Shown here one piece after another: positions 1 to 12,903 of a stretch of 14,438 nt of DNA. Both the position numbers and the translations under genes were made by a program. The stretch lies in assembly GCA_037444445.1 (NCBI GenBank), contig JBBIMK010000039.1, forward strand, positions 1-14,438, given 5' to 3'. The notes under the pieces were generated by a model. It saw nothing but the letters and a program-made list of their open reading frames with translations. It was not told the DNA's origin and did no database searches. The DNA is from a bacterium. Lineage in GTDB: Bacteria; UBP7; UBA6624; JBBIMK01. Each line of letters opens with the position of its first letter. The stretch's first letter is position 1.

Positions 1-48
1 AAAGAGGGGTATAAAAAAATCGTTCAGGGTGGTCAGAATCTCTTGACC

Positions 49-90
49 CAATACATTTAGAAGGCCTTGTGCTACAATACATTTAGAAGG
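49..90. repeat. Two perfect 16-nt direct repeats CAATACATTTAGAAGG (49-64 and 75-90), 26 nt start-to-start, immediately upstream of the Cys-rich ORF
   Basis: Read directly from the sequence. The flanks diverge immediately (ccttgtgcta vs gggaggtgat), so this is not a simple tandem duplication of a longer block. The second copy overlaps the putative -10 and runs into the Shine-Dalgarno region. Confidence 0.9.
50..78 (+). promoter_or_regulatory. Putative extended -10 promoter for the Cys-rich ORF operon (TGcTACAAT at 70-78; weak -35 aATACA at 50-55)
   Basis: TGnTACAAT motif lies 28 nt upstream of ATG 106. GGAGG Shine-Dalgarno at 92-96, 9 nt before the ATG. The -35 matches only 3/6, so the call rests on the extended -10. 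Confidence 0.4.
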
Positions 91-105
91 GGGAGGTGAT
101 AAAAG

Positions 106-480
106 ATGTTAAACCGAAGATGGAAAAACAACCTCCGACGATGGGCAGTTGAAACCACTATTCTCGCACTTGCTCTCATTCTATCCCCTAAGGCTTATTC
201 TACAATAGTTCCTAACGCTACTTGTATGGCTATTCAAGCCGACTACTTAGCCTGTGAAGGTCAAGATGACTGTTGTGGTGCTCCCTATTTAGATTGCTCT
301 GGTGGATGTGTCTATGGCTGCTATGCTCCTACCTGTCATCTGTGGGAATTTTGGCATGATGAATACGCCTGGTCCTGTTCGGATTGTGTTCAATATGTGA
401 TGTGTGCAGATGGGACATCTCACTGGATTGGAAACTGTCAAGCGAACCCGTTTCATGCTCGCACAGGTCAGTGTTGCTAA
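106..480 (+). CDS. Secreted cysteine-rich small protein, unknown family (124 aa; predicted mature part approx 92 aa with 14 Cys, ends in -GQCC)
   Basis: Strong SD (GGGGGAGGTGAT) upstream. N-terminus has a basic n-region (MLNRRWKNNLRRW), a hydrophobic core (AVETTILALALIL) and a c-region SPKAYS, typical of a Sec signal peptide. Cys patterns include DDCCG, CSGGCVYGCYAPTC, CSDCVQYVMC and a terminal CC. The protein is rich in Trp/Tyr/His. I recognise no family. Confidence 0.75.
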   Translation: MLNRRWKNNLRRWAVETTILALALILSPKAYSTIVPNATCMAIQADYLACEGQDDCCGAPYLDCSGGCVYGCYAPTCHLWEFWHDEYAWSCSDCVQYVMCADGTSHWIGNCQANPFHARTGQCC

Positions 481-488
481 CCTCCTAA

Positions 489-2642
489 ATGGGTGGCGTA
501 GGTCGTAACACAATTCTAATTGTTAGTGGCGTTTTTAGTGGAGGGTCTTTGTTACTCGTTAGAATGCCTGTAGATAGGTATTTTTTGTTTTTTATTATTC
601 CCCATTTGTTGCTTTTAATTGTCTTAGCCTTCATTTTCAGTGAATTTTTAAGACAGTCATGGAATCCGAAGGTCCTCCCCCTTTTGCTGGTTTCACGAAA
701 AGGATTGTATTGCATCTTATTTCATAAAATCCTGACCACAATCTTACTGGTGGGGCTCATCTCAGGGTTCACCATTGCTGTGAAAGTGTTGCTCCACCGG
801 GGGTTTTATCTAACTTCGGAGCAGTGGAAAGTATCACTGATTGGTGTTCAATTTTACTGGCTTGCCCTGCTCTTCTACTTAAACATCTTCTTTCTTTTCT
901 GGTGGCTTCCAACCTTTTATCGCATGACTCTCTCCATTACCTTATGCCTGATTTCTTATATTTCACTGGCAAAAAGCTTTGGAACGATTATAGAGTGGAC
1001 TTCTTACGGCAGTGTTTTTGAAATGTGGGGGCATTCACTTTTTTCACCCTTTTCTATTATCGGATTATACGGTGACGAGATTTCTGCTCCTTATAGCCTC
1101 GTTCTTTCAACTTTGAAAATTCTGATTTTTTCTATGATGTTTTGCGGGAGTCTTTTGCTGATACTATACTTCAGCCTTATCATCTACCAGACTCTCTCTG
1201 ATGTTCGTATCATCCCTATTTATAAAGAATATCGCTGGTTATGGGGAACTTTCCTGAGCATTTTTCTAATATTTATTACTTTTGGAGGGCTGGTTTTTAA
1301 GCGTCAGGCTCAAAATATAGTTTATCTTGCTAATGCACCTCTTTCGTCGTCAAAGGCAACCTCGTCTTTTCCCGCTATCAATGAGGAACGGAAGCGTCAG
1401 ATAAAACTTGCAATAGAACGAGAAAAAGCCTGGGTTATCCGTGAAGTAAACATCTCCATCGAGCCTTCCAGCATATATGCGGAAATCGTCGAGCAAATTT
1501 TTCTTCAGCGGTTAGGTGATGTGCAAAAGCTCAAATTTCGTGTGCCATTTCAATATCATGACTTATCCGTGCGAATCAATGGGAATCCCGTGCCACCTGA
1601 AAGATTAAAATTTTCCCATTCGGCACTTACACTCACTGGATTTTCTTTTCCCGAGCAATTCCAGTTACTTTTCACCTACCAAATCCCCTTACAACTCTTC
1701 GAAGTTCATCAAGGGCATGAGATAGCAACCATAACGACTTTGGATTGTAATGTTTCTAAGCCCTTCGTGAAATTGCCCAGAGAAATGCTTTTTCGCAGGC
1801 CTAACTTCAGATCAACAGATTATCTATCAGGCAGGACCATATCCGTAACGGCAGAGTTCGGAATTCCCCTGATTAATCATGGGGAATTATTTCCTATTCG
1901 GGTCAGTTTTCCTTCTAAATGCAGTCATTACCGATTCTCGGGTTTTCATCAGGTGGTCCATCACAATCAAATTTTTTTGTCTGCAGAAGGTGACTCTATA
2001 ATTGATATTTACGGATATGATGAAGCAAAATCCTGGGTCGCTACCGATTTAATTACTATAGAGGGAGCCAATGATTTCACACCTGATGCCCGAAACCAAC
2101 TCAGGCAGGTTACTCCCCGTTTATCCAACATACTTAGTAGTTATGGCTTTTCAGCTCCACTCTTTCTCAAATCCACATGCTTTTCCTTATCAAGATTTCC
2201 CACTCCGCTTTCACGACGCGCTTCTATAAATGGTACTCGCAGGGATTTTTTCACATTTTATCTTCTTTCCCGATGTGTGATCCAAGAAATATCTCCATAT
2301 TTAGAAGGCTGGAAACTCAATCGGATTTTAGCTGGCATTCTTACATACAAAGCCTTTGTGGAAAATGGTTGGATGACTAAAAGTGATTTCATGGAACAAA
2401 TACGTGCATTCGTTGAACCCTTGCAGAGTCCTGGTGCCCCAGTTCCCGATTTCTATGACTTGCTAAGTTATTATTTAACTGATAAGAAGAATGTAGATGT
2501 GGAGATAAGCCATAAGTTAAAGGAAGTGAGCGAGATATTGCTCTGGCTTCGTGGCAAATCGTTTGATAATCCTTATTATTCTATGGTTCATACCCCATCT
2601 TCTGAAGATTGGTTGCCTCTGAGTTTGACGACCGAAGAGTAA
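489..2642 (+). CDS. Polytopic membrane protein (about 8 predicted TM helices in residues 1-270) fused to a roughly 430-aa soluble domain; unknown function, possibly the permease partner of the downstream ABC remnant
   Basis: Long uninterrupted ORF starting 9 nt after the Cys-rich ORF stop. Hydrophobic segments include ILIVSGVFSGGSLLLV, FLFFIIPHLLLLIVLAFIF, ILTTILLVGLISGFTIAV, FYWLALLFYLNIFFLFWWL, ILIFSMMFCGSLLLILYFSLIIY and WLWGTFLSIFLIFITFGGLVF. No HExxH, CxxC or Walker motifs. No clear SD before ATG 489, so the start is uncertain (alternative Met at 564). Confidence 0.7.
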   Translation: MGGVGRNTILIVSGVFSGGSLLLVRMPVDRYFLFFIIPHLLLLIVLAFIFSEFLRQSWNPKVLPLLLVSRKGLYCILFHKILTTILLVGLISGFTIAVKVLLHRGFYLTSEQWKVSLIGVQFYWLALLFYLNIFFLFWWLPTFYRMTLSITLCLISYISLAKSFGTIIEWTSYGSVFEMWGHSLFSPFSIIGLYGDEISAPYSLVLSTLKILIFSMMFCGSLLLILYFSLIIYQTLSDVRIIPIYKEYRWLWGTFLSIFLIFITFGGLVFKRQAQNIVYLANAPLSSSKATSSFPAINEERKRQIKLAIEREKAWVIREVNISIEPSSIYAEIVEQIFLQRLGDVQKLKFRVPFQYHDLSVRINGNPVPPERLKFSHSALTLTGFSFPEQFQLLFTYQIPLQLFEVHQGHEIATITTLDCNVSKPFVKLPREMLFRRPNFRSTDYLSGRTISVTAEFGIPLINHGELFPIRVSFPSKCSHYRFSGFHQVVHHNQIFLSAEGDSIIDIYGYDEAKSWVATDLITIEGANDFTPDARNQLRQVTPRLSNILSSYGFSAPLFLKSTCFSLSRFPTPLSRRASINGTRRDFFTFYLLSRCVIQEISPYLEGWKLNRILAGILTYKAFVENGWMTKSDFMEQIRAFVEPLQSPGAPVPDFYDLLSYYLTDKKNVDVEISHKLKEVSEILLWLRGKSFDNPYYSMVHTPSSEDWLPLSLTTEE

Positions 2643-2673
2643 TTATGACTTAAAAAGGGGGAAGGGCATAATT

Positions 2674-2822
2674 ATGAGAGGGATGCTGAAGGTAGCAGGT
2701 GTGGTGAAGTTGTATATACCGGGATGTTCGGGCTTCTGGGCTCTAACGGAGCCGGGAAGACCACGCTGATGCGTATCTGTGCCACACTTCTGGAGCCCAC
2801 GAAAGGGGAGGTTCTTTTCTAC
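2674..2822 (+). pseudogene. Remnant of an ABC transporter ATP-binding protein (ABC-2/DrrA-NatA-like Walker A region), frameshifted and 3'-truncated
   Basis: ATG 2674 with SD AAGGGGGAAGGG gives MRGMLKVAGVVKLY, an ABC-ATPase-like N-terminus, and hits a stop at 2767-2769. Another frame, from 2724, reads MFGLLGSNGAGKTTLMRICATLLEPTKGEVLF, with Walker A GSNGAGKT at 2739-2762. The approx 15 residues normally found between K-x-Y-G and GE-x-FGLLG are missing. Q-loop, signature LSGGQ, Walker B and H-loop are all absent, because the homology stops at about 2820, where the convergent wecB ends. Confidence 0.8.
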
Positions 2823-3958
2823 TGGACGAAGTTTTTCAGCAGGATAGAGACGATGCGTCGGGCGGCTTTGCCATCTCCAAAAGGATTGGGAGCGGAAGTG
2901 GCCCGGTGGTAGCGACCTGTATCTTTCAGCAGGTTTCTCACGATGCGTGCGATGTAAATCGGATTTGTTCCCACCAGCAAGGCACTGCCGGTTTCCAGGG
3001 CTTCCACCCGCTCGGTCGTAGAGCGCATGATGAGAGTGGGTTTTCGGAAAGTGGGCGCTTCTTCCTGGATGCCACCGGAGTCTGTAAGTACCAGTCGGCA
3101 ACCTTTTAAGAGCATTAAGAATTGTGGGTAATCTACTGGAGGAAGCAAGTGAATGTGAGGTGTCCCCATGAGCGATTTTTGAACTATCCGCTGGACTTCC
3201 GGGTTGAGATGAACCGGCCAGATGATGTGTAGATTCGGATGTTCAGTAAGGATTCGTTGCAGGGAATCACAGATTTGCTGAATTCCTTCACCGATACTTT
3301 CACGACGATGGGCAGTCACCAGCAGGTAAGGTGTAAGCCCATTCAGCGAGAACCCGACCAGATTAGAAAGTGCCTTCCATAGGGGATGGAATTTGGGCGA
3401 AAGGATTTTTCTACGCGCCCAGAGCGCGGCGTCTACCACTGTATTGCCGGTTATATAAATGTGCTCGGCGTCAATTCCTTCTTGCAGGAGATTCGCCCGG
3501 GCTTTTTGTGTGGGCGCAAAATGATAGGTAGCCAGGTGGCTGATCAATACCCGATTCAGTTCCTCCGGGAACGGGTTCTCCCGGTCGAAGGAGCGTAATC
3601 CTGCTTCTACATGTGCGAGAGGTACTTTACGGTAATAAGCCACAAGAGCCGCCGCCAGAGCGGTGGTGGTGTCGCCCTGGGCAATGAGAAGGTCAGGGTT
3701 ACCGGTGCGCTGAAAATACCGCTCTAATCTTGTAATCGCTTTACAGAGAAGTGTTGCCAGCGAACAACCAGGCTTCATAATTGCTAAGTCTTCGTCCGGT
3801 GTGATTTCAAAAAATCGCAGGAATGGTGTGAGCATTTCCCGGTGTTGACCGGTAGAAATGATGGATAAGGTGATCTCAGGATGTTTTCTCATTTCATGGA
3901 TGACCGGTGCCAGTTTGATGGCTTCGGGCCTGGTTCCCAGTACCACGCTTACATTCAT
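2819..3958 (-). CDS. wecB: UDP-N-acetylglucosamine 2-epimerase (non-hydrolysing)
   Basis: Full-length 379 aa. N-terminus VVLGTRPEAIKLAPV, plus DLLIAQGDTTTALAAALVAYY, VAHVEAGLRSFD, PFPEE-NR, VLTDSGGIQEEAP and GDGKAARRIV are characteristic of the WecB/MnaA epimerase_2 family. Confidence 0.9.
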   Translation of the reverse strand: MNVSVVLGTRPEAIKLAPVIHEMRKHPEITLSIISTGQHREMLTPFLRFFEITPDEDLAIMKPGCSLATLLCKAITRLERYFQRTGNPDLLIAQGDTTTALAAALVAYYRKVPLAHVEAGLRSFDRENPFPEELNRVLISHLATYHFAPTQKARANLLQEGIDAEHIYITGNTVVDAALWARRKILSPKFHPLWKALSNLVGFSLNGLTPYLLVTAHRRESIGEGIQQICDSLQRILTEHPNLHIIWPVHLNPEVQRIVQKSLMGTPHIHLLPPVDYPQFLMLLKGCRLVLTDSGGIQEEAPTFRKPTLIMRSTTERVEALETGSALLVGTNPIYIARIVRNLLKDTGRYHRATSAPNPFGDGKAARRIVSILLKNFVQ

Positions 3959-4009
3959 TTTTTTCTTACTCCTGCCTCCAATTGAACCAATGCGTGAAAC
4001 GCGTAGATT

Positions 4010-5401
4010 TCATTCACCCGCTGGCTGTTCATCATTCCCTTTTCCATGGTAAAGAAGATGCAGGATTTTACGGGTTTGATTCGTGACTTTCACGCGGTCA
4101 TCCAGGCGATGTCCGACAATCCAGAGAATTTTTTCATCATCGGTAATGATTGGGACGGAGGAGCGGTAAAGAGAAGGGATTTTTTCATCCACGAAGAAAT
4201 CCTGTAATTTTTTGGGGGCGTTCATGCCCAGGGGATAGAATCGGTCGCCGGGCTTCCAGCCCCGAACCCGAATCTTACCACGAATGCACCCTGCATCCAG
4301 AAATGCCTCCCAGGGTTTCGCCTTTTGAATCTTCAGGTGAAGATGGGGCGCAGGGGAAAGAATGGTGCAGGTGTAGTCTCCAACTTTTCCCGGTACCTGA
4401 AGAAGGATTGGCTGAACTTTTTCCGGCTGAGGGAGAATATGTAGTGATTTGCCTTCTTTCATTAGCCACCATTTCGCAGAAAGTTGCCAGATTTTTCTTT
4501 CCGGGAGGGATTGACAGGCCTGAAGGAGTTTTCTCAATGTTTTTCCATGAAAAGGGACCTTAAGAATCTGAAGCCATAGGAGAAAAACCCGCCGTTGAAT
4601 AGGGTAGGGTTGACGAAGAAAGGAAAGAGAGAGGCGGTTTCCGGATATATATCTTTTAGAGATTTTTTGGGCTTGTTTTTGTATAAATTCATCCTCTTCA
4701 TTGAGGAGGGAAATGATTTCCAGCATTTTTTTCTGCCATCCTGGGTTCAGAGTTCTGTTCAGGTAGGGAATCAGGCGGTGACGAATCCGATTCCGGAGGA
4801 AGCGGAGGTCAGAGTTAGAAGGGTCAATTCGGTAAGGCAGGCGGTGTGCCCGACAGTGATGTAAAATGGCTTCGCGGGGCAGGGCTATCAGCGGGCGGAT
4901 GAGAAGAACTTCCCTGCCCTGAGGAGTTTTTATGCTCCGCACAGGGGGTATTCCTTTCAAGAATTCACGGGATGCCCCCTGAACCAGCCTCATCAAAAAA
5001 GTTTCCAGGTTATCGGATGCGGTGTGTCCCAGGGCGATTTGGTGGATGTTCCATTTGTCAGCCACTTGAAGGAGGTGCTGGTAGCGTGCCTCTCGTCCTG
5101 CTTCTTCCAGAGATTTTTTTTGTTCCCGGGCCCTCTGTTTCACATCTTCGTATCTCAAGGCGAGAGGAATCCGCCATTTCTGACAAAGGGATTGAACAAA
5201 ATTGGCATCTTCATCGGCGCTTCTCCCTCTCAATCCGTGATGGAGATGAAAGGCGAATACTTGAATGTGAAGCCCTTTAGCCAGGTGCTTGAGCAGGTGC
5301 AAAAGGGCAACGGAATCCGGTCCCCCTGAGCAGGCCACCAGCACTCTTTGGTGTGGGCGAAGCATCTTGTTCTTTTGGAGGGTTTGGAAAAGGGAGTGCA
5401 A
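4010..5401 (-). CDS. tilS: tRNA(Ile)-lysidine synthetase
   Basis: PP-loop motif VACSGGPDSVALLHLL, HLHHGLRG, and a length and C-terminal domain typical of TilS. The track start at 5401 is a TTG. An internal ATG at 5365 (MLRPHQRVLVACSGG...) is an equally plausible start. Neither has a good SD. Confidence 0.88.
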   Translation of the reverse strand: MHSLFQTLQKNKMLRPHQRVLVACSGGPDSVALLHLLKHLAKGLHIQVFAFHLHHGLRGRSADEDANFVQSLCQKWRIPLALRYEDVKQRAREQKKSLEEAGREARYQHLLQVADKWNIHQIALGHTASDNLETFLMRLVQGASREFLKGIPPVRSIKTPQGREVLLIRPLIALPREAILHHCRAHRLPYRIDPSNSDLRFLRNRIRHRLIPYLNRTLNPGWQKKMLEIISLLNEEDEFIQKQAQKISKRYISGNRLSLSFLRQPYPIQRRVFLLWLQILKVPFHGKTLRKLLQACQSLPERKIWQLSAKWWLMKEGKSLHILPQPEKVQPILLQVPGKVGDYTCTILSPAPHLHLKIQKAKPWEAFLDAGCIRGKIRVRGWKPGDRFYPLGMNAPKKLQDFFVDEKIPSLYRSSVPIITDDEKILWIVGHRLDDRVKVTNQTRKILHLLYHGKGNDEQPAGE

Positions 5402-5404
5402 GTG

Positions 5405-6370
5405 TTAAGAGCGGTTTTTCAGGAATTCCTGTTTCAACTGGAGATAAAGATTTTTATCCCCACCCTTTTCGCGGAATTTCTCCAGAAAAACCAGGGCTTT
5501 CCGCTGGTCTCCCCTGGCATGATACAACTCTGCCAGTTTCTGGAGCGGAAAAGGTGAACGGTTGAAAACATCGGCCGCTTCCAGAAGAAACTTCTCTGCT
5601 TCGGAATACCGTTTTTGTTCCATCAGCAGTTGACCCAGTTTCAATTTTGCGCCGGCATTTTTTGGAAATAGTTTCAAAACTTCACGGTATTCCTGTTCTG
5701 CTTCCCTTTTTTTGCCTTCTTCAAACAGGATATTGGCATATAACATGCGTCCTTCCACATACCGGGGGTCTATTTCAATGAGGTGTTTTCCCAACCTTTC
5801 TGCATCTTCCAGTTTTTTTAAATCATAAGTGAGGAATTCAATGGCTACCAGGGCGCCATGAAGGGACAGACTTTTATCATTCTCAAAGGCTTTCATTACA
5901 GTTTCATAGGCTTTTTTGGGATCGCCAGATTTGTAATAAGCGGTAGAGAGCAGGTAAAAGCCTACGCCATATCCGGGCTCTATTTCAGTGAGTTTTTCCA
6001 GATGGTGGATGGCTATTTTCAGGTCTTCACCCAGTCCTGCAGAATATAATTGGGTGATGGACTTCACAAGGTAAGCCTGGCAACGGACGGGTAAACGATA
6101 GATTTCTTTTACGGGTAACTCAATCAGTTCCAGTGATGAACGGGAACCACACGGAGAATCAGGGGATGGGAGAGGAGAGGGAGAATTCGGTGTGCCTGTG
6201 AGAGGAGTGGAGGTGGGATGGCTCGCTGAAGGTGTAAAAGGGCTGGCTTTCGTGGCTGATGTGGCAGGTGGCTCGGGGGGTTTTTCCGTGCGCTTTTGAG
6301 GAGGAACGCAAGAGATAATCCCACTGAGCAGGAAAAAACATAAAACTCTCACCCTTTTGTTGTTTGGCAT
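5405..6370 (-). CDS. TPR-repeat protein, probable lipoprotein with a Pro/Ser/Thr-rich linker
   Basis: N-terminus MPNNKRVRVLCFFLLSGIISC has a signal peptide and a lipobox-like IISC. It is followed by a low-complexity P/S/T stretch of approx 60 aa, then repeated TPR-like helices (YLLSTAYYKSGDPKKAYE, MLYANILFEEGKKREAEQEY, KLGQLLMEQKRYSEAEKF, LAELYHARGDQRKAL). Confidence 0.75.
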   Translation of the reverse strand: MPNNKRVRVLCFFLLSGIISCVPPQKRTEKPPEPPATSATKASPFTPSASHPTSTPLTGTPNSPSPLPSPDSPCGSRSSLELIELPVKEIYRLPVRCQAYLVKSITQLYSAGLGEDLKIAIHHLEKLTEIEPGYGVGFYLLSTAYYKSGDPKKAYETVMKAFENDKSLSLHGALVAIEFLTYDLKKLEDAERLGKHLIEIDPRYVEGRMLYANILFEEGKKREAEQEYREVLKLFPKNAGAKLKLGQLLMEQKRYSEAEKFLLEAADVFNRSPFPLQKLAELYHARGDQRKALVFLEKFREKGGDKNLYLQLKQEFLKNRS

Positions 6371-6381
6371 AACTTTTCTAC

Positions 6382-6455
6382 TGGCTGTGCGGGGATTTGA
6401 ACCCCGGACTCTACGGGTATGAGCCGTATGCTCTCGCCATCTGAGCTACACAGCC
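6382..6455 (-). tRNA. tRNA with CAU anticodon, elongator-type (tRNA-Met; a tRNA-Ile2 lysidine substrate cannot be excluded)
   Basis: The reverse complement folds by hand into a 74-nt cloverleaf: GGCTGTG TA GCTC AGATGGCGA GAGC A TACGG CTCATAC CCGTA GAGTC CGGGG TTCAAAT CCCCG CACAGCC A. G1-C72 is paired and there is no GGG/CCC anticodon stem, so it is not an initiator. The acceptor stem GGCU... resembles E. coli elongator tRNA-Met. No CCA is encoded. Confidence 0.85.
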
Positions 6456-6460
6456 TGTTT

Positions 6461-6536
6461 TGGGTGCGGGGGCGGGATTCGAACCCGCGACCTCCGGGTT
6501 ATGAGCCCGACAAGCTTACCACTGCTCTACCCCGCA
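6461..6536 (-). tRNA. Initiator-type tRNA-Met (CAU), CCA encoded
   Basis: The reverse complement reads TGCGGGG TA GAGC AGTGGTAA GCTT G TCGGG CTCATAA CCCGG AGGTC GCGGG TTCGAAT CCCGC CCCCGCA C CCA. It is very close to E. coli tRNA-fMet, with three G:C pairs at 29-31:39-41 and an A11:U24 pair. Position 1 is U (pairing with A72) instead of the usual mismatched C, and the discriminator reads C. Confidence 0.88.
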
Positions 6537-7432: not shown

Positions 7433-7846
7433 TTAATGGCTGGAGGCCGGGTGGTGATGGCTTTCTACCTTCTTTGAACCTTCGGTGCGGAAGGAAGAGC
7501 CGCAGGCACAAGTGGCAATCACATTGGGGTTTTCAATCTTGAATCCCCCTCCGATAAGATTGGTATCCTCATAATCAATCACGGAGCCTTTTAATCGGAA
7601 GGAACTCATCAAATCCACATACACCTGAATCCCCTGGGATTCAAAAATCATATCTCCCTCACGAGCTTGATTCTCTAAATCCATCGCATATTCGTAGCCG
7701 GCGCATCCTCCTCTTTTGATGTAGATTCGCAAGCCCCAGCCCTGTTTTCCTGCCCGCTCTCTCAGAGTTCGGATTCGGCCCGCGGCTTTTTCCGTTAACT
7801 CCACTAACTTTTTCGTGACATCTTCCATCTCTTCAACCTCTCCCAT
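7433..7846 (-). CDS. A-type iron-sulfur cluster carrier (HesB/IscA/ErpA family) with a C-terminal His-rich extension
   Basis: Conserved LRIYIKRGGCAGYEY, GGGFKIENPN and C-x-C-GSSF. The 201-aa track ORF overlaps the upstream gene and its first 64 residues look non-genic. I start the CDS at ATG 7846 (MGEVEEMEDVTKK...). ATG 7828, with GGGAGAGG 9 nt upstream, is an alternative. Confidence 0.8.
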   Translation of the reverse strand: MGEVEEMEDVTKKLVELTEKAAGRIRTLRERAGKQGWGLRIYIKRGGCAGYEYAMDLENQAREGDMIFESQGIQVYVDLMSSFRLKGSVIDYEDTNLIGGGFKIENPNVIATCACGSSFRTEGSKKVESHHHPASSH

Positions 7847-7883
7847 CTCTATTTTAACTGATTTTCTCCTGGGTCGCAACAGG

Positions 7884-8741
7884 TCAGGTAAGAGGCGAGT
7901 TGGTTTTAAGCGGGGCTGGGCTTTCGGTGAGTGGCTCCTCGGGCTGAGGTTCACCTTCAACCAGGCTCCTGGCATCCCTTCCGAATTTTTCCAGCACCAG
8001 GGTTGAGTGAATTGGAATCGTGCGTTTTTTCTGCTCATTCAGCAGTTGAAAGTGCAGTTCCACGGTGGAAGTGGCTTTCAGCAGAGCAAAAGGAACCCGC
8101 TCGGAATACCAGCCCTGATAAATGAGACTTTCGGAGAGTGAAAAATCATGGGGTAGGGCGGGTGGAATAGCGATTCTCATACGCAGTATCTGATATCGGG
8201 CTTCAAACTTCCCGGGTGAAATCACCATAGTTTGAGGCAGAGGGTCCTCTTCCACTTTCCACTGGATGAGGGGTTTTAGGAAAGATAGGCTCGTTTCCCA
8301 CTGAAAGGGTTTCCAGGGAAGTGATTCCAGGCGCACAGGTGTTTCATCGCCCTTTTGAAAGATAATTTCCTGTATAGAAGAGATAGGTTGAAAATACGAT
8401 GTGAAGTCTTCCACGAGTGTAGCTGGGAATTTTTTCAAGGATTCCTCAGGCAGAAGAACTTTGAGTTTGAGAGCCTCATCCTCACCTTCCGGGAAATAGT
8501 CCATTTCCAGCCAGTCGCAGGGTTTTCCTTCACGGTTTTCAGAGTCCACGATGGCCAGGCGAAGGCGGGCATAATGTGAAATCACCAGCCCCAGGCCGGG
8601 CTCTGCTCGGATGATGATTTTGTACTCTGCGTAAGACCCTGGTTTCGTGGGGAAGTATAGGGGACTGGTAGCCTTATCAGCGAAAAGGAACCCTGTGCTA
8701 AACAGAAGCCACAATATGCCAGATTTCCAATACTTCGTCAT
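7884..8741 (-). CDS. Hypothetical exported protein (285 aa), unknown family
   Basis: AGGAGG SD 10 nt upstream. N-terminal signal-peptide-like MTKYWKSGILWLLFSTGFLFADKA. The mature part looks beta-rich and the C-terminal tail is acidic and Pro-rich (EGEPQPEEPLTESPAPLKTNSPLT). No motif recognised. Confidence 0.65.
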   Translation of the reverse strand: MTKYWKSGILWLLFSTGFLFADKATSPLYFPTKPGSYAEYKIIIRAEPGLGLVISHYARLRLAIVDSENREGKPCDWLEMDYFPEGEDEALKLKVLLPEESLKKFPATLVEDFTSYFQPISSIQEIIFQKGDETPVRLESLPWKPFQWETSLSFLKPLIQWKVEEDPLPQTMVISPGKFEARYQILRMRIAIPPALPHDFSLSESLIYQGWYSERVPFALLKATSTVELHFQLLNEQKKRTIPIHSTLVLEKFGRDARSLVEGEPQPEEPLTESPAPLKTNSPLT

Positions 8742-8757: not shown

Positions 8758-10152
8758 TCACAAAATGTATTTCTGCAGGTCCTCGTTTTCCAGGATGTCT
8801 TTCAGGTTTTTCCTGACGAATTCCCGGTTGATGAGTATTTCTAAATCTTTCTCGTGAGGCGCTTCAAAGGCGATGTCCTGGAGGCATCGTTCCACGACGG
8901 TGTAAAGCCTTCTGGCGCCGATGTCCTGTGTGGATTCATTCACTTCGTAGGCGATTTTGGCGAGTTCTTCAATGCCATCTTCTGTAAAGGTCAGATTCAC
9001 ACCATCTACGCTGAGTAGTGCCTGATATTGCTTGGTGAGGGCATTTTCAGGCTCTACGAGGATTCTTTTGAAATCATCTACGGTGAGGCTCTGCAGTTCT
9101 ACGCGGACCGGGAAACGCCCCTGAAGTTCTGGAATTAAATCGGAGGGCTTGCTCGTGTGAAAGGCGCCGGCAGCGATAAACAGGATGTGGTCCGTTTTCA
9201 CAGGCCCGTATTTGGTGGGAACTGTGGTGCCTTCCACGACGGGAAGCAAATCTCTCTGCACCCCTTCTCGGGACACATCCGGTCCCACAGTTTGCCCATG
9301 GGAGGTAATTTTATCTATTTCGTCCAGGAAGATGATACCGGTTTCCTGTGCCCTTCGGATGCCTTCCTGAATAATTTTTTCCCGGTCCAGGAGAGATTCA
9401 AATTCTTGCTCCAGGAAAATCCGCTGGGCTTCTTTGATTTTGGTTTTCTTACGCTTCTTTTTTTTGGGGAAAGTATCTTCCATCAACTGCTGGAAGCTGA
9501 TGCCGATTTCTTCCATGCCTGGCAAATTAGAAAGGTCCATCACTTTTACCCTCGGTTCCTGGACCTCAATTTCAATTTCCCGTTCATCCAGGGCTCCTCG
9601 GCGGAGTTCTTCCAGGAGGAGGCGTCGGGAGTGTTTCACCTGCTCCAGCATGCTTTCGCTTTCCTCATCCATGAAAGGAGTGCGAGCGGTTTTGGGATAA
9701 GGGACCAGGATGTCTAAAATTTTCTCTTCTGACCGTTTTTGAGCGGTTTTTTCCACCCTCTGCTGTTCTTCCATCCGAACCATCTGAATGCTGGTTTCTA
9801 CCAATTCTCGGACCATGGATTCTACATCCCGCCCCACATAGCCCACTTCGGTGAATTTTGTCACTTCAACTTTAATGAAAGGGGCTTTGATGAACCGGGC
9901 GATACGGCGGGCAATCTCAGTCTTTCCCACCCCCGTAGGTCCAATCATCAGGATATTTTTGGGGGTCACTTCTTCCTGCATCGGAGAGGGAAGCATTTTT
10001 CTCCGATAATGGTTCCGAATGGCAATGGACACGGCTTTCTTGGCATCCTTCTGGCCCACGATATATTTATCCAGTTCTGCGACGATTTCCCTGGGAGTCG
10101 GGAATGGGTGGGTTAAAGAGAATGGAGTAGAGCGATTTGCCACGATTTTCAC
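8758..10152 (-). CDS. hslU: ATP-dependent protease ATPase subunit HslU
   Basis: TPREIVAELDKYIVGQKDAKKAVSIAIRNHYRR, Walker A MIGPTGVGKTEIARR, Walker B IIFLDEIDKI, FIAAGAFH and the C-terminal domain are all present. The track start at 10290 would overlap hslV by 137 nt. GTG 10152 lies 1 nt after the hslV stop with GGAG 4 nt upstream, and gives a 464-aa protein with a normal N-terminus. Confidence 0.92.
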   Translation of the reverse strand: MKIVANRSTPFSLTHPFPTPREIVAELDKYIVGQKDAKKAVSIAIRNHYRRKMLPSPMQEEVTPKNILMIGPTGVGKTEIARRIARFIKAPFIKVEVTKFTEVGYVGRDVESMVRELVETSIQMVRMEEQQRVEKTAQKRSEEKILDILVPYPKTARTPFMDEESESMLEQVKHSRRLLLEELRRGALDEREIEIEVQEPRVKVMDLSNLPGMEEIGISFQQLMEDTFPKKKKRKKTKIKEAQRIFLEQEFESLLDREKIIQEGIRRAQETGIIFLDEIDKITSHGQTVGPDVSREGVQRDLLPVVEGTTVPTKYGPVKTDHILFIAAGAFHTSKPSDLIPELQGRFPVRVELQSLTVDDFKRILVEPENALTKQYQALLSVDGVNLTFTEDGIEELAKIAYEVNESTQDIGARRLYTVVERCLQDIAFEAPHEKDLEILINREFVRKNLKDILENEDLQKYIL

Positions 10153-10153
10153 C

Positions 10154-10699
10154 TCACTCCAGCGTTTCCATAATGACTTCATTATTGGTATAAATGCAGA
10201 TTTCTGAGGCGATGTGAATCGCTTCTTTTGCGATTTCTTCCGCAGGTTTGGAGGTGAAGCGAAAAAGGGCTTTCGCCACCGCAAGAGCATAAGGCCCTCC
10301 GCTCCCTATGGCTAACACTTCCTCATCCGGCTCAATCACTTCACCACTGCCGGAGATTAAGAGGAGTCCTTCTTTATCAGCCACCAGGAGAAGTGCTTCC
10401 AGTCTTCGTAGATAGCGGTCGGTACGCCATTCCTTCGCCAGGTCTACTGCGGCCTTTTTTAATTTTCCTTTGGCGGCATCCAGGTGTTTTTCAAATCGCT
10501 CAAACAAAGCCAGGGCGTCCGCAACGGAGCCCGCAAATCCAGCCAGCACTTTCCCGTTGTAGAGCCGGCGAAGTTTCACGGCTTTTTGTTTCACAACCGT
10601 TTCGCCCAGGGTCACCTGTCCATCGGCGGACATAGCGACTTTCCCATTCCGTCTCACCGCCACCACCGTAGTTCCCCGCGTGTGTGGAATTGCATTCAC
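10154..10699 (-). CDS. hslV: ATP-dependent protease proteolytic subunit HslV
   Basis: [41 protein letters not shown] and [17 protein letters not shown] start. Nine residues (MNAIPHTRG) precede the catalytic Thr. Confidence 0.93.
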
Positions 10700-11613: not shown

Positions 11614-12117
11614 ATGAAACCGCAGGGATGGATTGCATTTATTATTTTATTCGCCGTCTGGTTTTATTTTGCTGATTATCTCCTGAAAAAATTTCCGCTG
11701 GGCCCTGAAGCAAGAGGGGGTTTTATCTTCCTTATGTCTTTGCCATTTCTAACAATCATTTCGGCAGTAATTTACTGGAAATATTTCATTACTGCCGATT
11801 TCTTTGAGATGCCTCCCATTCGGTATACTCGTGAGTTCTGGGTTTGGCTGATGGCGAAGATGAGAGGTGAAAAACGCCTCTGGCTGATGCCCCCTAAGAA
11901 TATTCGTATCCCCCCTCCCCTGGGGGATGACACTTTACGCGACGCCCATCTGGAATCCCTCATTTTAGAAAAAGCCATCCCGGATGCCGAGGAGTATGTG
12001 AGGGAAAAACTCGATTGGTCTCGCCTTGTATCCGGTGAGGAGGGAGAGAGGATGTTAAAAATCTACCTGCATTACATGAATTTTCTCATCCGTTTCCAGA
12101 GGGAATTAGAGCAGTGA
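11614..12117 (+). CDS. Membrane protein, unknown function (2 TM plus approx 100-aa conserved cytoplasmic domain); paralog of the next gene
   Basis: 167 aa. TM segments WIAFIILFAVWFYFADYLL and GFIFLMSLPFLTIISAVIYW. The C-terminal domain shares FFEMP, IPPPLGDDTLRD-HLE-LI, EYVREKL and IYLHYMNF with the downstream ORF. Confidence 0.65.
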   Translation: MKPQGWIAFIILFAVWFYFADYLLKKFPLGPEARGGFIFLMSLPFLTIISAVIYWKYFITADFFEMPPIRYTREFWVWLMAKMRGEKRLWLMPPKNIRIPPPLGDDTLRDAHLESLILEKAIPDAEEYVREKLDWSRLVSGEEGERMLKIYLHYMNFLIRFQRELEQ

Positions 12118-12129
12118 GAACTGTTTGAG

Positions 12130-12903
12130 ATGCCAACCAATGTGGCTTTTCTCTCGTTATTTGTCGGGTTAGTGGTACTCCTTATGTTCTCTATTTTCAC
12201 TACTGAGGCTCCAGCAGGCGGATTTTTTGTAGGCTCCACAGAGGAGGGAAAGACAAGAGCCATTGCGATTCTATCGCTTTCAGTCGTGAATGCTGTTCTC
12301 ATATATTTTGCTTTTACTTCTTCCGCAGGTGCAGGTTTATCCAGCGCATTGGCTATTTCCTTTTTTATCATTACTGCAACCCTTTATATTATGGGAAGTT
12401 CCAGGGGGGTTGCTTTCTTCGTCGGCTTCATTCTTGTTTACTGGGAATATCTGGCGTGGATTCGGCATCGCTACTCTGGAGAATTGAAATGGATTGGTGA
12501 ATACATCATTCTGCTTACCCTTCCTCTGGTTGGGATTTTATGGGCGTTGATTTTTTATCGCTATATTCTGGAGGAAGATATCTTTGATATGCCCACCCGG
12601 ATCGCCAGGGAATACCCTGCTTACTTCAGGAAGAAGGTAAGAGAGGAAGGCCTCTTGCGCCGTGCGCTTCGCCATACAATTTCTATTCCTCCCCCTCTGC
12701 AGGATGATTCTCTCCGGGACATCACTCTGGAAACACTCATCCGAAAAGGTAAAATAGAGAAAGTGGAGGGCTACCTCCGGGAGAAGTTGGAAGAGTTACG
12801 GGAACTGCCCGAATCTCTGAAGGAACAACATCGTAGAATTTATTCCCATTATCTATCTTTCTGGACTTCACTCAAAGGAGTCATCAAGGATGAAAACTTT
12901 TAA
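12130..12903 (+). CDS. Membrane protein, unknown function (about 5 TM plus the same conserved C-terminal domain); paralog of the previous gene
   Basis: 257 aa. Hydrophobic N-terminal 150 aa, then IFDMP, IPPPLQDDSLRD-TLE-LI, GYLREKL and IYSHYLSF in the same order and spacing as in the upstream ORF. Its 3' end overlaps the mtaD start by 14 nt. Confidence 0.65.
   Translation: MPTNVAFLSLFVGLVVLLMFSIFTTEAPAGGFFVGSTEEGKTRAIAILSLSVVNAVLIYFAFTSSAGAGLSSALAISFFIITATLYIMGSSRGVAFFVGFILVYWEYLAWIRHRYSGELKWIGEYIILLTLPLVGILWALIFYRYILEEDIFDMPTRIAREYPAYFRKKVREEGLLRRALRHTISIPPPLQDDSLRDITLETLIRKGKIEKVEGYLREKLEELRELPESLKEQHRRIYSHYLSFWTSLKGVIKDENF

Follow-up and report, generated by a model that had tools for sequence, protein, structure and literature searches.

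Which genes belong together at the left end of this contig, and what could they do? The window, meaning the whole stretch of DNA that was analysed, comprises 14,438 bp and is an entire NCBI contig (JBBIMK010000039.1, assembly GCA_037444445.1, from a bacterium of the GTDB lineage Bacteria; UBP7; UBA6624; JBBIMK01). The module of interest at its left end is therefore truncated on the 5' side. The original prediction described three plus-strand genes there, encoding an exported Cys-rich miniprotein, a large membrane protein and a decayed ABC-2-type ATPase, with a composition differing from that of the adjoining housekeeping array. This layout was confirmed with small corrections: open reading frame 1 (ORF1, 106–480) is followed by ORF2 (489–2642) and by an ABC ATPase remnant that begins at the ATG at 2674. 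The 31-nt gap between ORF2 and the ATPase stub was borne out, and a terminator scan found none in either gap; the gap between ORF1 and ORF2 is 8 nt and not 9 nt. The GC content of the module is 41.3%, compared with 49.0% for the remaining contig, so that the claimed difference in composition from the adjoining housekeeping array, about 8 points, also stands. The definition of the unit, however, had to be corrected. Judged from the comparison of related loci, the conserved core consists of a thiol-disulfide oxidoreductase, the miniprotein and a protein with seven transmembrane helices (7-TM), and not of the trio of miniprotein, membrane protein and ATPase.

The conserved core of the locus

Homologues of the 717-aa ORF2 product were sought in a HMMER pass over 1.84 billion representative proteins, and only two were found (E values of 9e-123 and 6e-85). 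One of them (P0003) is 43% identical to ORF2; it is called as 539 aa, and the corresponding ORF at locus L083, from the closest relative, has 717 aa. The other (P0004) is 29% identical and has 701 aa. Conservation of the large protein extends over its full length in these homologues. Word-index protein searches with the 717-aa protein, the miniprotein or a three-sequence profile (this last one capped at 8000 candidates) returned the query alone, exact look-ups of the proteins of the window gave no record, and nothing was obtained from metagenome scans with the large-protein and miniprotein alignments, from a scan of viral contigs or from tblastn against plasmids. Each of the two homologues of the 717-aa gene is immediately preceded by a homologue of the miniprotein gene; these encode 120 and 116 aa, with 60% and 48% identity. 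The question raised with the original prediction, whether the Cys-rich and 717-aa ORFs co-occur elsewhere, can thus be answered: they do so at both homologue loci. The two ORFs are real genes, and every lineage found to have one of them, three in all, has the other beside it. The large gene starts 8 nt after the miniprotein stop codon, 1 nt after it, or with an overlap of 10 nt, and the two genes are translationally coupled. By their conservation and their scarcity in the searches, the miniprotein and the large protein form a real, very rare conserved pair.

As had been suspected, neither intact protein falls into a known family. The miniprotein had no match in Pfam (E<=10, all homologues), NCBIfam (E<=1), PADLOC, PHROGs or PDB sequences, and the same was found for the large protein in Pfam (E<=10, all three homologues), NCBIfam (E<=1, window protein), PADLOC, PHROGs and PDB sequences. 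Rfam showed no family within the module.

The gene order in the closest relative (loci L082 and L083) and in the third lineage (L081) is Redoxin, Cys-rich ORF, large protein. In both L083 and L081, the gene directly upstream of the miniprotein encodes a thioredoxin-like protein of 193–194 aa with an N-terminal hydrophobic anchor, a thioredoxin fold and a CxxC motif (CKFC and CHYC). It matches AhpC-TSA (1e-19), ResA (4e-17) and DsbE (6e-13), as well as Redoxin, Thioredoxin_8 and TlpA; the matches to the ResA, DsbE and TlpA models are all far below the family cut-offs. In the window, positions 1–60 (plus strand) are open in frame 1 up to a TAG at 58–60 and probably represent the last 19 codons and the stop codon of a TlpA/ResA-like oxidoreductase gene. 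The encoded tail (KEGYKKIVQGG...) loosely resembles the tails ...TEFQKLLQEV and ...PEFKKWLRQV of the Redoxin genes of L083 and L081, and its DNA is 40% identical to that of the relative, having diverged as much as the core. Because only 19 residues remain, the identity of this tail is inferred from synteny and not demonstrated; the oxidoreductase gene is probably present in this genome and cut by the contig start. The occurrence of the Redoxin gene in both relatives, together with the absence of the ATPase in L081, places the oxidoreductase in the core along with the miniprotein and the large membrane protein. The trio as read earlier had thus overlooked a conserved third gene, and the partner for study is the oxidoreductase, not the ABC ATPase. 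Neither a CcdA/DsbD electron donor nor a metal transporter is a conserved neighbour in the loci.

ORF1 (106–480, plus strand) encodes a predicted exported miniprotein of 124 aa with 14 Cys, all located after residue 39. The predicted signal peptide of 33 aa comprises a basic n-region (MLNRRWKNNLRRWAVE), a hydrophobic core and an AxS-type cleavage site; cleavage after AYS, TYS or SMA in the three homologues was assigned by the −3/−1 rule and not by a predictor. The N-terminus is nearly invariant in the three lineages, reading MLN(R/K)RWK(N/G)NLRRWAVE. Of the Tat motif S/T-R-R-x-F-L-K, its invariant NLRRWAVE part fits only the minimal pattern (RRx-hydrophobic-hydrophobic), and the h-region is strongly hydrophobic and Sec-like. 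The leader contains no GG motif, no exporter gene is present in any of the loci, and no paralogous gene with the same leader was found in any DNA fetched. The mature part, of 82–91 aa by the assigned cleavage sites, begins with a conserved T(I/T)VP, has no more than one basic residue and an abundance of Trp and Tyr, and is strongly acidic, with net charges of −9, −9 and −4 in the three lineages. Ten Cys are invariant across the three miniproteins, and the C-terminus TGQCC is common to all. The Cys counts of 14, 12 and 10 are even each time, which fits five to seven disulfides. CX4CH occurs in two of the three sequences; no CxxC, CxxCH or other metal motif is conserved across them, and the L081 miniprotein has no His. 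A charge comparison between the miniprotein and the outside domain of the large protein was uninformative. PDB profile matches to the 'Cake' designer beta-propeller (E 9e-8) were discarded, since their scores add up eight matches of ~3 bits each to a single blade motif that is repeated.

ORF2 (489–2642, plus strand) encodes the 717-aa membrane protein, with about seven TM helices (residues 8–272) followed by a predicted extracytoplasmic domain of ~440 aa. This topology was derived from hydropathy and the positive-inside rule and not from a dedicated predictor or experiment: the TM1–2 and TM5–6 loops are strongly basic and the long TM4–5 loop is acidic, corresponding to an N-in/C-out arrangement. 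Four Cys of the C-terminal domain are invariant; they lie far apart and no CxxC occurs, a pattern to be expected of structural disulfides outside the cell. None of the three large proteins matched an ABC-2 permease family in Pfam at E<=10. Matches to ResB or CcsA (WWD) were also absent, and no invariant His is found in the TM part of ORF2.

A single-sequence AlphaFold2 (AF2) model of ORF2 had a pLDDT of 41 and was not usable. With the three-sequence alignment as input, the mean pLDDT was 46, with values of 50–84 at residues 315–400 (beta-sandwich) and 520–690 (helical), and residues 400–516 were unmodelled. When this weak model was compared with the PDB using Foldseek, the top 48 matches were all M1 aminopeptidases, extending over ~91–99 residues with E values down to 1.8e-4. 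The output came without aligned coordinates, and we infer that residues ~315–400 were matched to the M1 N-terminal beta-sandwich. A regular-expression search found neither GxMEN nor HExxH-X18-E in any of the three large proteins, Peptidase_M1 (Pfam) gave no signal for the large protein, and hhalign against Escherichia coli PepN (sequence checked against PDB 2dq6) gave none either (probability 0.6%). No M1 peptidase was found in the fetched loci. Compared with M1 aminopeptidases (PepN; class III lanthipeptide leader peptidases such as EryP), the domain is alike in its Foldseek matches, in its beta-rich then helical order and in its ~440 aa; it differs in having neither the GxMEN/HExxH motifs nor a Peptidase_M1 signal and in its location behind seven TM helices, predicted outside, and the model behind the likeness is of low confidence. 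Given the mean pLDDT and the missing hhalign signal to PepN, the M1-like fold is tentative, and the outside domain may at most be a zinc-less M1-like domain.

Divergence of the core and decay of the ATPase

Divergence of the hosts was assessed by comparing the window with L083 and L086, which are both ends of one 60-kb contig. At the L086 end, orthologues of the window flanking genes are 67–92% identical, with synonymous divergence (dS) of 0.44–1.36 and differences at 29–52% of 4-fold sites. At the L083 end, by contrast, identity is 57% for the miniprotein and 41% for the large protein, dS is saturated, and 62–69% of 4-fold sites differ. The nonsynonymous divergence (dN) of the miniprotein and large protein, 0.34 and 0.51, is far below the saturated dS. 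Other hypothetical membrane or envelope proteins in the genome pair are 67–78% identical, with unsaturated synonymous sites. Moreover, in each of the three hosts, whose GC contents are 49% and 64%, the GC content of the cassette is 5–8 points lower than that of the flanks, and the surroundings of the cassette differ in each lineage. With a near-saturated core next to unsaturated flanks and a low GC content in every host, the locus behaves like an exchanged or polymorphic accessory cassette. These data point to cassette copies that coalesce far deeper than the host genomes, through either lateral exchange or long-lived divergent alleles. By analogy, such a pattern would be typical of accessory loci for antagonism, immunity or surface recognition.

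Two pieces of the locus have diverged in a host-like manner, and both are short. The first 16 miniprotein codons, together with the promoter and the Shine-Dalgarno (SD) sequence, show a dS of 0.40, and the ATPase stub shows a dS of 0.75, calculated from 31 codons of the most conserved ATPase motif.

The ATPase remnant (2674–2812, plus strand) is a pseudogene stub of a DrrA-like (ABC-2-type) ABC ATPase, of which only the start and Walker A remain. It is spread over two frames: the first part, 2674–2769, ends at a TGA, and the Walker-A part (GMFGLLGSNGAGKTT...TKGEV) lies in another frame. The stub matches Pfam ABC_tran (2.5e-8) and NCBIfam DrrA (8e-9), and the best NCBIfam matches of the ATPase include DrrA and the lantibiotic-protection ATPase. 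Aligned with the intact gene of the closest relative, it displays an internal loss of ~22 codons, a frameshift and a 3' truncation, and homology breaks off ~7 nt short of the point where wecB, the convergent gene, has its stop codon. The DrrA-like and decayed nature of this gene, as read in the original prediction, is thus supported by the NCBIfam match and by alignment to an intact copy. An identical wecB/stub junction is present in L085, a Logan assembly obtained independently from a strain whose proteins are ~97% identical, indicating that the truncation is genuine, not an assembly chimera, and older than the split of those strains. An intact version in relatives had been anticipated, and at least its first 86 aa were found in the same place in the closest relative: in L082, an intact DrrA-like ATPase start lies 96 nt after the large gene, and the gene runs for 86 aa to the contig end (DrrA 7e-20). 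In L081, no ABC gene lies downstream, and a HIT-family ATP adenylyltransferase-like gene and a J-domain gene are found instead. On this comparison, the DrrA-like ATPase is optional or merely adjacent to the core. It is not a conserved member of the module, being absent in L081, and the divergence of the stub is at host level while that of the two core genes is near saturation.

Four independent assemblies break in or just before the Walker-A region of the ATPase, equivalent to window positions ~2720–2790 (L082 end 11974, L083 end 11785, L084 end 2135 and L085 end 10152), a pattern suggestive of P-loop k-mers that are repeated in paralogous ATPases or of heterogeneity between strains at exactly this junction. 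The TPR-tilS-wecB block (2819–6370) follows iscA-csp-yqeY in the window and precedes amidohydrolase-Memo-hslVU in L086 (829–4077), a rearrangement between the two lineages of which one breakpoint coincides with the truncated ATPase.

Possible roles of the cassette

We tentatively favour, with a probability of roughly 0.4, the reading that the core encodes an extracytoplasmic ligand/partner pair matured by the oxidoreductase and possibly related to conflict or recognition. The window holds the 3' part of a rare accessory cassette. According to this model, the miniprotein would be exported via its Sec-type signal peptide, the TlpA-like oxidoreductase would set or proof-read its five to seven disulfides, and the miniprotein would then dock on the outside domain of the large protein. 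That domain, comprising an M1-like beta-sandwich and a helical part without a zinc site, would serve in binding and not in catalysis. The pair would act as effector and protector, or as ligand and partner, on the external side of the membrane, in a fixed ratio provided by translational coupling. In the window, two deletions destroyed the ATPase, and the two core genes stayed intact. A bolder version of this reading, which we consider unlikely, is that the triad represents a new type of effector/partner system, polymorphic and extracytoplasmic, in thermophilic bacteria, whose function in self/non-self recognition, immunity or signalling would be without a described counterpart; here a disulfide-knotted acidic miniprotein with an invariant leader, matured by a private TlpA-like enzyme, would be read by a 7-TM protein with a zinc-less, M1-peptidase-like pseudoenzyme domain.

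A number of observations weigh against the ligand/partner reading. The mature miniprotein has a strongly acidic composition, and with nothing but a Sec signal it would stay in the periplasm of a diderm; both features speak against a secreted bacteriocin of the classical kind. Proteins of the TlpA type usually act as reductants, a role that agrees with cofactor or metal handling no less than with folding. The M1-like fold comes from a low-confidence model (mean pLDDT 46) with no hhalign signal to PepN, and the topology and the signal-peptide cleavage were derived by simple rules. Weak codon bias in a GC-poor gene could partly inflate dS, and the host-like divergence of the ATPase stub was obtained from just 31 codons. 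Finally, the family comprises three lineages only, and the conclusions are computational.

Dedicated thioredoxin-fold (Trx-fold) oxidoreductases are encoded in several bacteriocin loci, including those of sublancin (sunA/bdbA/bdbB), pediocin (PedC) and S. thermophilus (BlpG). As in those loci, from what is generally known of them, a small exported Cys peptide is encoded here beside a private Trx-fold CxxC protein and one or more membrane partners, the leader is more conserved than the mature part, and the locus is GC-poor and divergent in close relatives. Unlike them, the cassette lacks a double-glycine leader, an ABC exporter with a C39 peptidase and a small immunity protein; its mature product is ~90 aa long with five to seven putative disulfides and is strongly acidic, bacteriocins being typically cationic, and the partner is a 717-aa 7-TM protein. 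Pfam and NCBIfam scans showed no sequence similarity to these bacteriocin systems. The cassette also resembles TlpA/ResA/CcmG systems (for example ResA-ResB-ResC), in that an anchored Trx-fold CxxC protein is followed by a candidate exported Cys substrate and by a polytopic protein with a periplasmic domain. It differs from System II cytochrome c maturation in having no ResB or CcsA (WWD), no invariant TM His and no conserved CxxCH.

How do other explanations compare? The original prediction had likened the locus to producer-immunity and export loci of the LanFEG/BcrAB type; spelled out, the DrrA-like ATPase would power an ABC transporter with the 717-aa protein as its membrane part, by which the Cys-rich peptide would be exported or expelled, and the present copy would be crippled. 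This now appears quite improbable, even though, as in LanFEG/BcrAB/DrrAB loci, two of the three lineages carry a DrrA-like ATPase gene or its remnant beside the gene for the membrane protein; an intact start lies 96 nt downstream in the closest relative and the stub in the same place in the window, and DrrA and lantibiotic-protection ATPases are among the best NCBIfam matches. The M1-like hint, moreover, recalls what we take to be an NCBI naming of proteins as 'ABC transporter permease/M1 family aminopeptidase'. Unlike the membrane components of such systems, however, the large protein lacks an ABC-2 signature, with no ABC-2 membrane family match for any of its three versions at E<=10, and has seven TM helices with an outside C-terminus in place of six with both termini inside. 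The ATPase is missing in one lineage and dead in the window, where the core is nevertheless intact; the sister strain carries the same dead junction, and ATPase divergence is host-like while that of the core is saturated. The mature peptide is also acidic. In ABC-2 operons, the ATPase gene normally comes before its permease gene, whereas the order here is membrane protein then ATPase; this ATPase therefore more likely opened a separate, deleted operon. In a serious rival reading, which we nonetheless consider rather unlikely, the genes form a periplasmic module for metal or thiol handling: the acidic Cys-rich protein would bind or buffer a metal or serve as a thiol carrier, the TlpA-like reductase would hold its cysteines in the reduced state, and cargo would be delivered or taken up by the 7-TM protein. 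Reduction of cysteines for the insertion of cofactors or copper is the typical task of TlpA/ResA/CcmG-type proteins, and the relatives' upstream genes match ResA, DsbE and TlpA models. The mature protein is acidic, rich in Cys and aromatic residues and nearly devoid of Lys and Arg, two of the miniproteins contain CX4CH, and the source of the closest relative is an Fe-rich hot spring, Chocolate Pots (PMC6137239). Cys numbers that are always even and vary in pairs, however, speak for disulfides more than for a fixed metal site. Conserved metal motifs, CxxC included, are lacking (CX4CH does not extend to L081, whose miniprotein has no His), no CcdA/DsbD electron donor or metal transporter accompanies the genes as a conserved neighbour, and a housekeeping function would leave the saturated divergence between close relatives unexplained.

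That the cassette is a lineage-specific envelope component with an ordinary structural or biogenesis role, evolving fast because it is extracytoplasmic and free of conflict or exchange, would agree with the prediction of all three core products as membrane or extracytoplasmic proteins, with the finding of no mobile-element, toxin or defence signatures, and with its position among housekeeping genes. We nevertheless rate this as decidedly unlikely, since other membrane proteins in the genome pair remain 67–78% identical with unsaturated synonymous sites, and since the cassette is GC-poor in three hosts and in varied genomic contexts, occurring in hosts of 49% and 64% GC and almost nowhere else. 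Hardly credible is the idea that the ORFs are non-functional, whether chance ORFs or a decaying remnant. The neighbouring ATPase is indeed a pseudogene, and the module is GC-poor and located at a contig end; yet both ORFs are intact and conserved at the protein level in three lineages with dN far below dS, the miniprotein has a strong conserved SD, and the Cys pattern and leader are invariant.

If the ligand/partner reading is true, the cassette would define two new protein families, an acidic miniprotein with five to seven disulfides and a constrained signal peptide, and a 7-TM protein with a peptidase-like pseudoenzyme domain. It would also add to the few systems that devote a thioredoxin-fold enzyme of their own to the maturation of a single exported protein, and would illustrate, for uncultured bacteria of hot springs, how such a cassette is exchanged or maintained in the form of deeply divergent alleles. 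With three lineages in about 15 billion proteins, the family is tiny, and its wider importance is uncertain.

Promoter region and neighbouring genes

The repeat-bearing promoter region described upstream of ORF1 is present: two perfect 16-nt direct repeats, CAATACATTTAGAAGG, lie at 49–64 and 75–90 (plus strand) with a period of 26 nt, and 0 of 200 shuffles gave three or more matches. The −10 element and the 5' untranslated region both overlap with the second copy. Neither L083 nor L081 keeps the repeat; of the two copies, only the region of the second can be aligned there. A likely promoter and translation start region spans 70–100 (plus strand), with an extended −10 element, TGcTACAAT, at 70–78 and the SD sequence GGAGGTGA at 93–100. 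Both elements are kept between the window and the closest relative (L083), and L081 has TATAAT plus an identical SD. TTGACC (43–48), earlier taken as a −35 element, is 24 nt from TACAAT (73–78), too far for sigma-70, and is therefore not a usable −35. A consensus promoter scan made no call at the 70–100 region or at the TTGACC/TACAAT pair.

DNA identity between the window and L082 peaks at 82% over 61–120 and is ~50–60% across the module. Against L083 (9070–9165), window positions 61–160 form an island of ~82–94% DNA identity, covering the promoter, the SD and the first 16 miniprotein codons, inside near-saturated DNA. A hairpin that would sequester the SD was considered and is not claimed: GGAGGU can pair with ACCUCC in codons 9–11, and the pairing appears in the minimum free energy fold in two lineages, but its stability is no better than that of shuffles (z about 0.15), with one covarying pair.

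To the right, the module is bounded by the convergent wecB gene (UDP-GlcNAc 2-epimerase; 2819–3958, minus strand; TIGR00236 at 8e-135), which is not a member of it. The wecB product is 82% identical to its L086 orthologue, and in L086 the gene is not adjacent to the module. In a genome scan with WecB, the best match was 48% identical, and no closely related genome emerged. Further along the contig, two neighbouring tRNA-Met (CAT) genes (6382–6455 and 6461–6536, minus strand) lie between a TPR gene and a YqeY gene. Tandem paralogous membrane proteins of 167 and 257 aa are encoded at 11614–12117 and 12130–12903 (plus strand); they are 40% identical over 123 aa and have in common the C-terminal motif IPPPL.DD(S/T)LRD..LE(S/T)LI. 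Both are kept in L085, and one copy is present in L086. The program ORFs of the IscA-like gene (7433–8038, 201 aa) and of HslU (8758–10290, 510 aa), both on the minus strand, have long N-terminal extensions that overlap the upstream genes. In relatives, the called genes encode 131 aa for the IscA-like protein and 461 or 474 aa for HslU, and the true starts of the two window genes are probably internal to the program ORFs.

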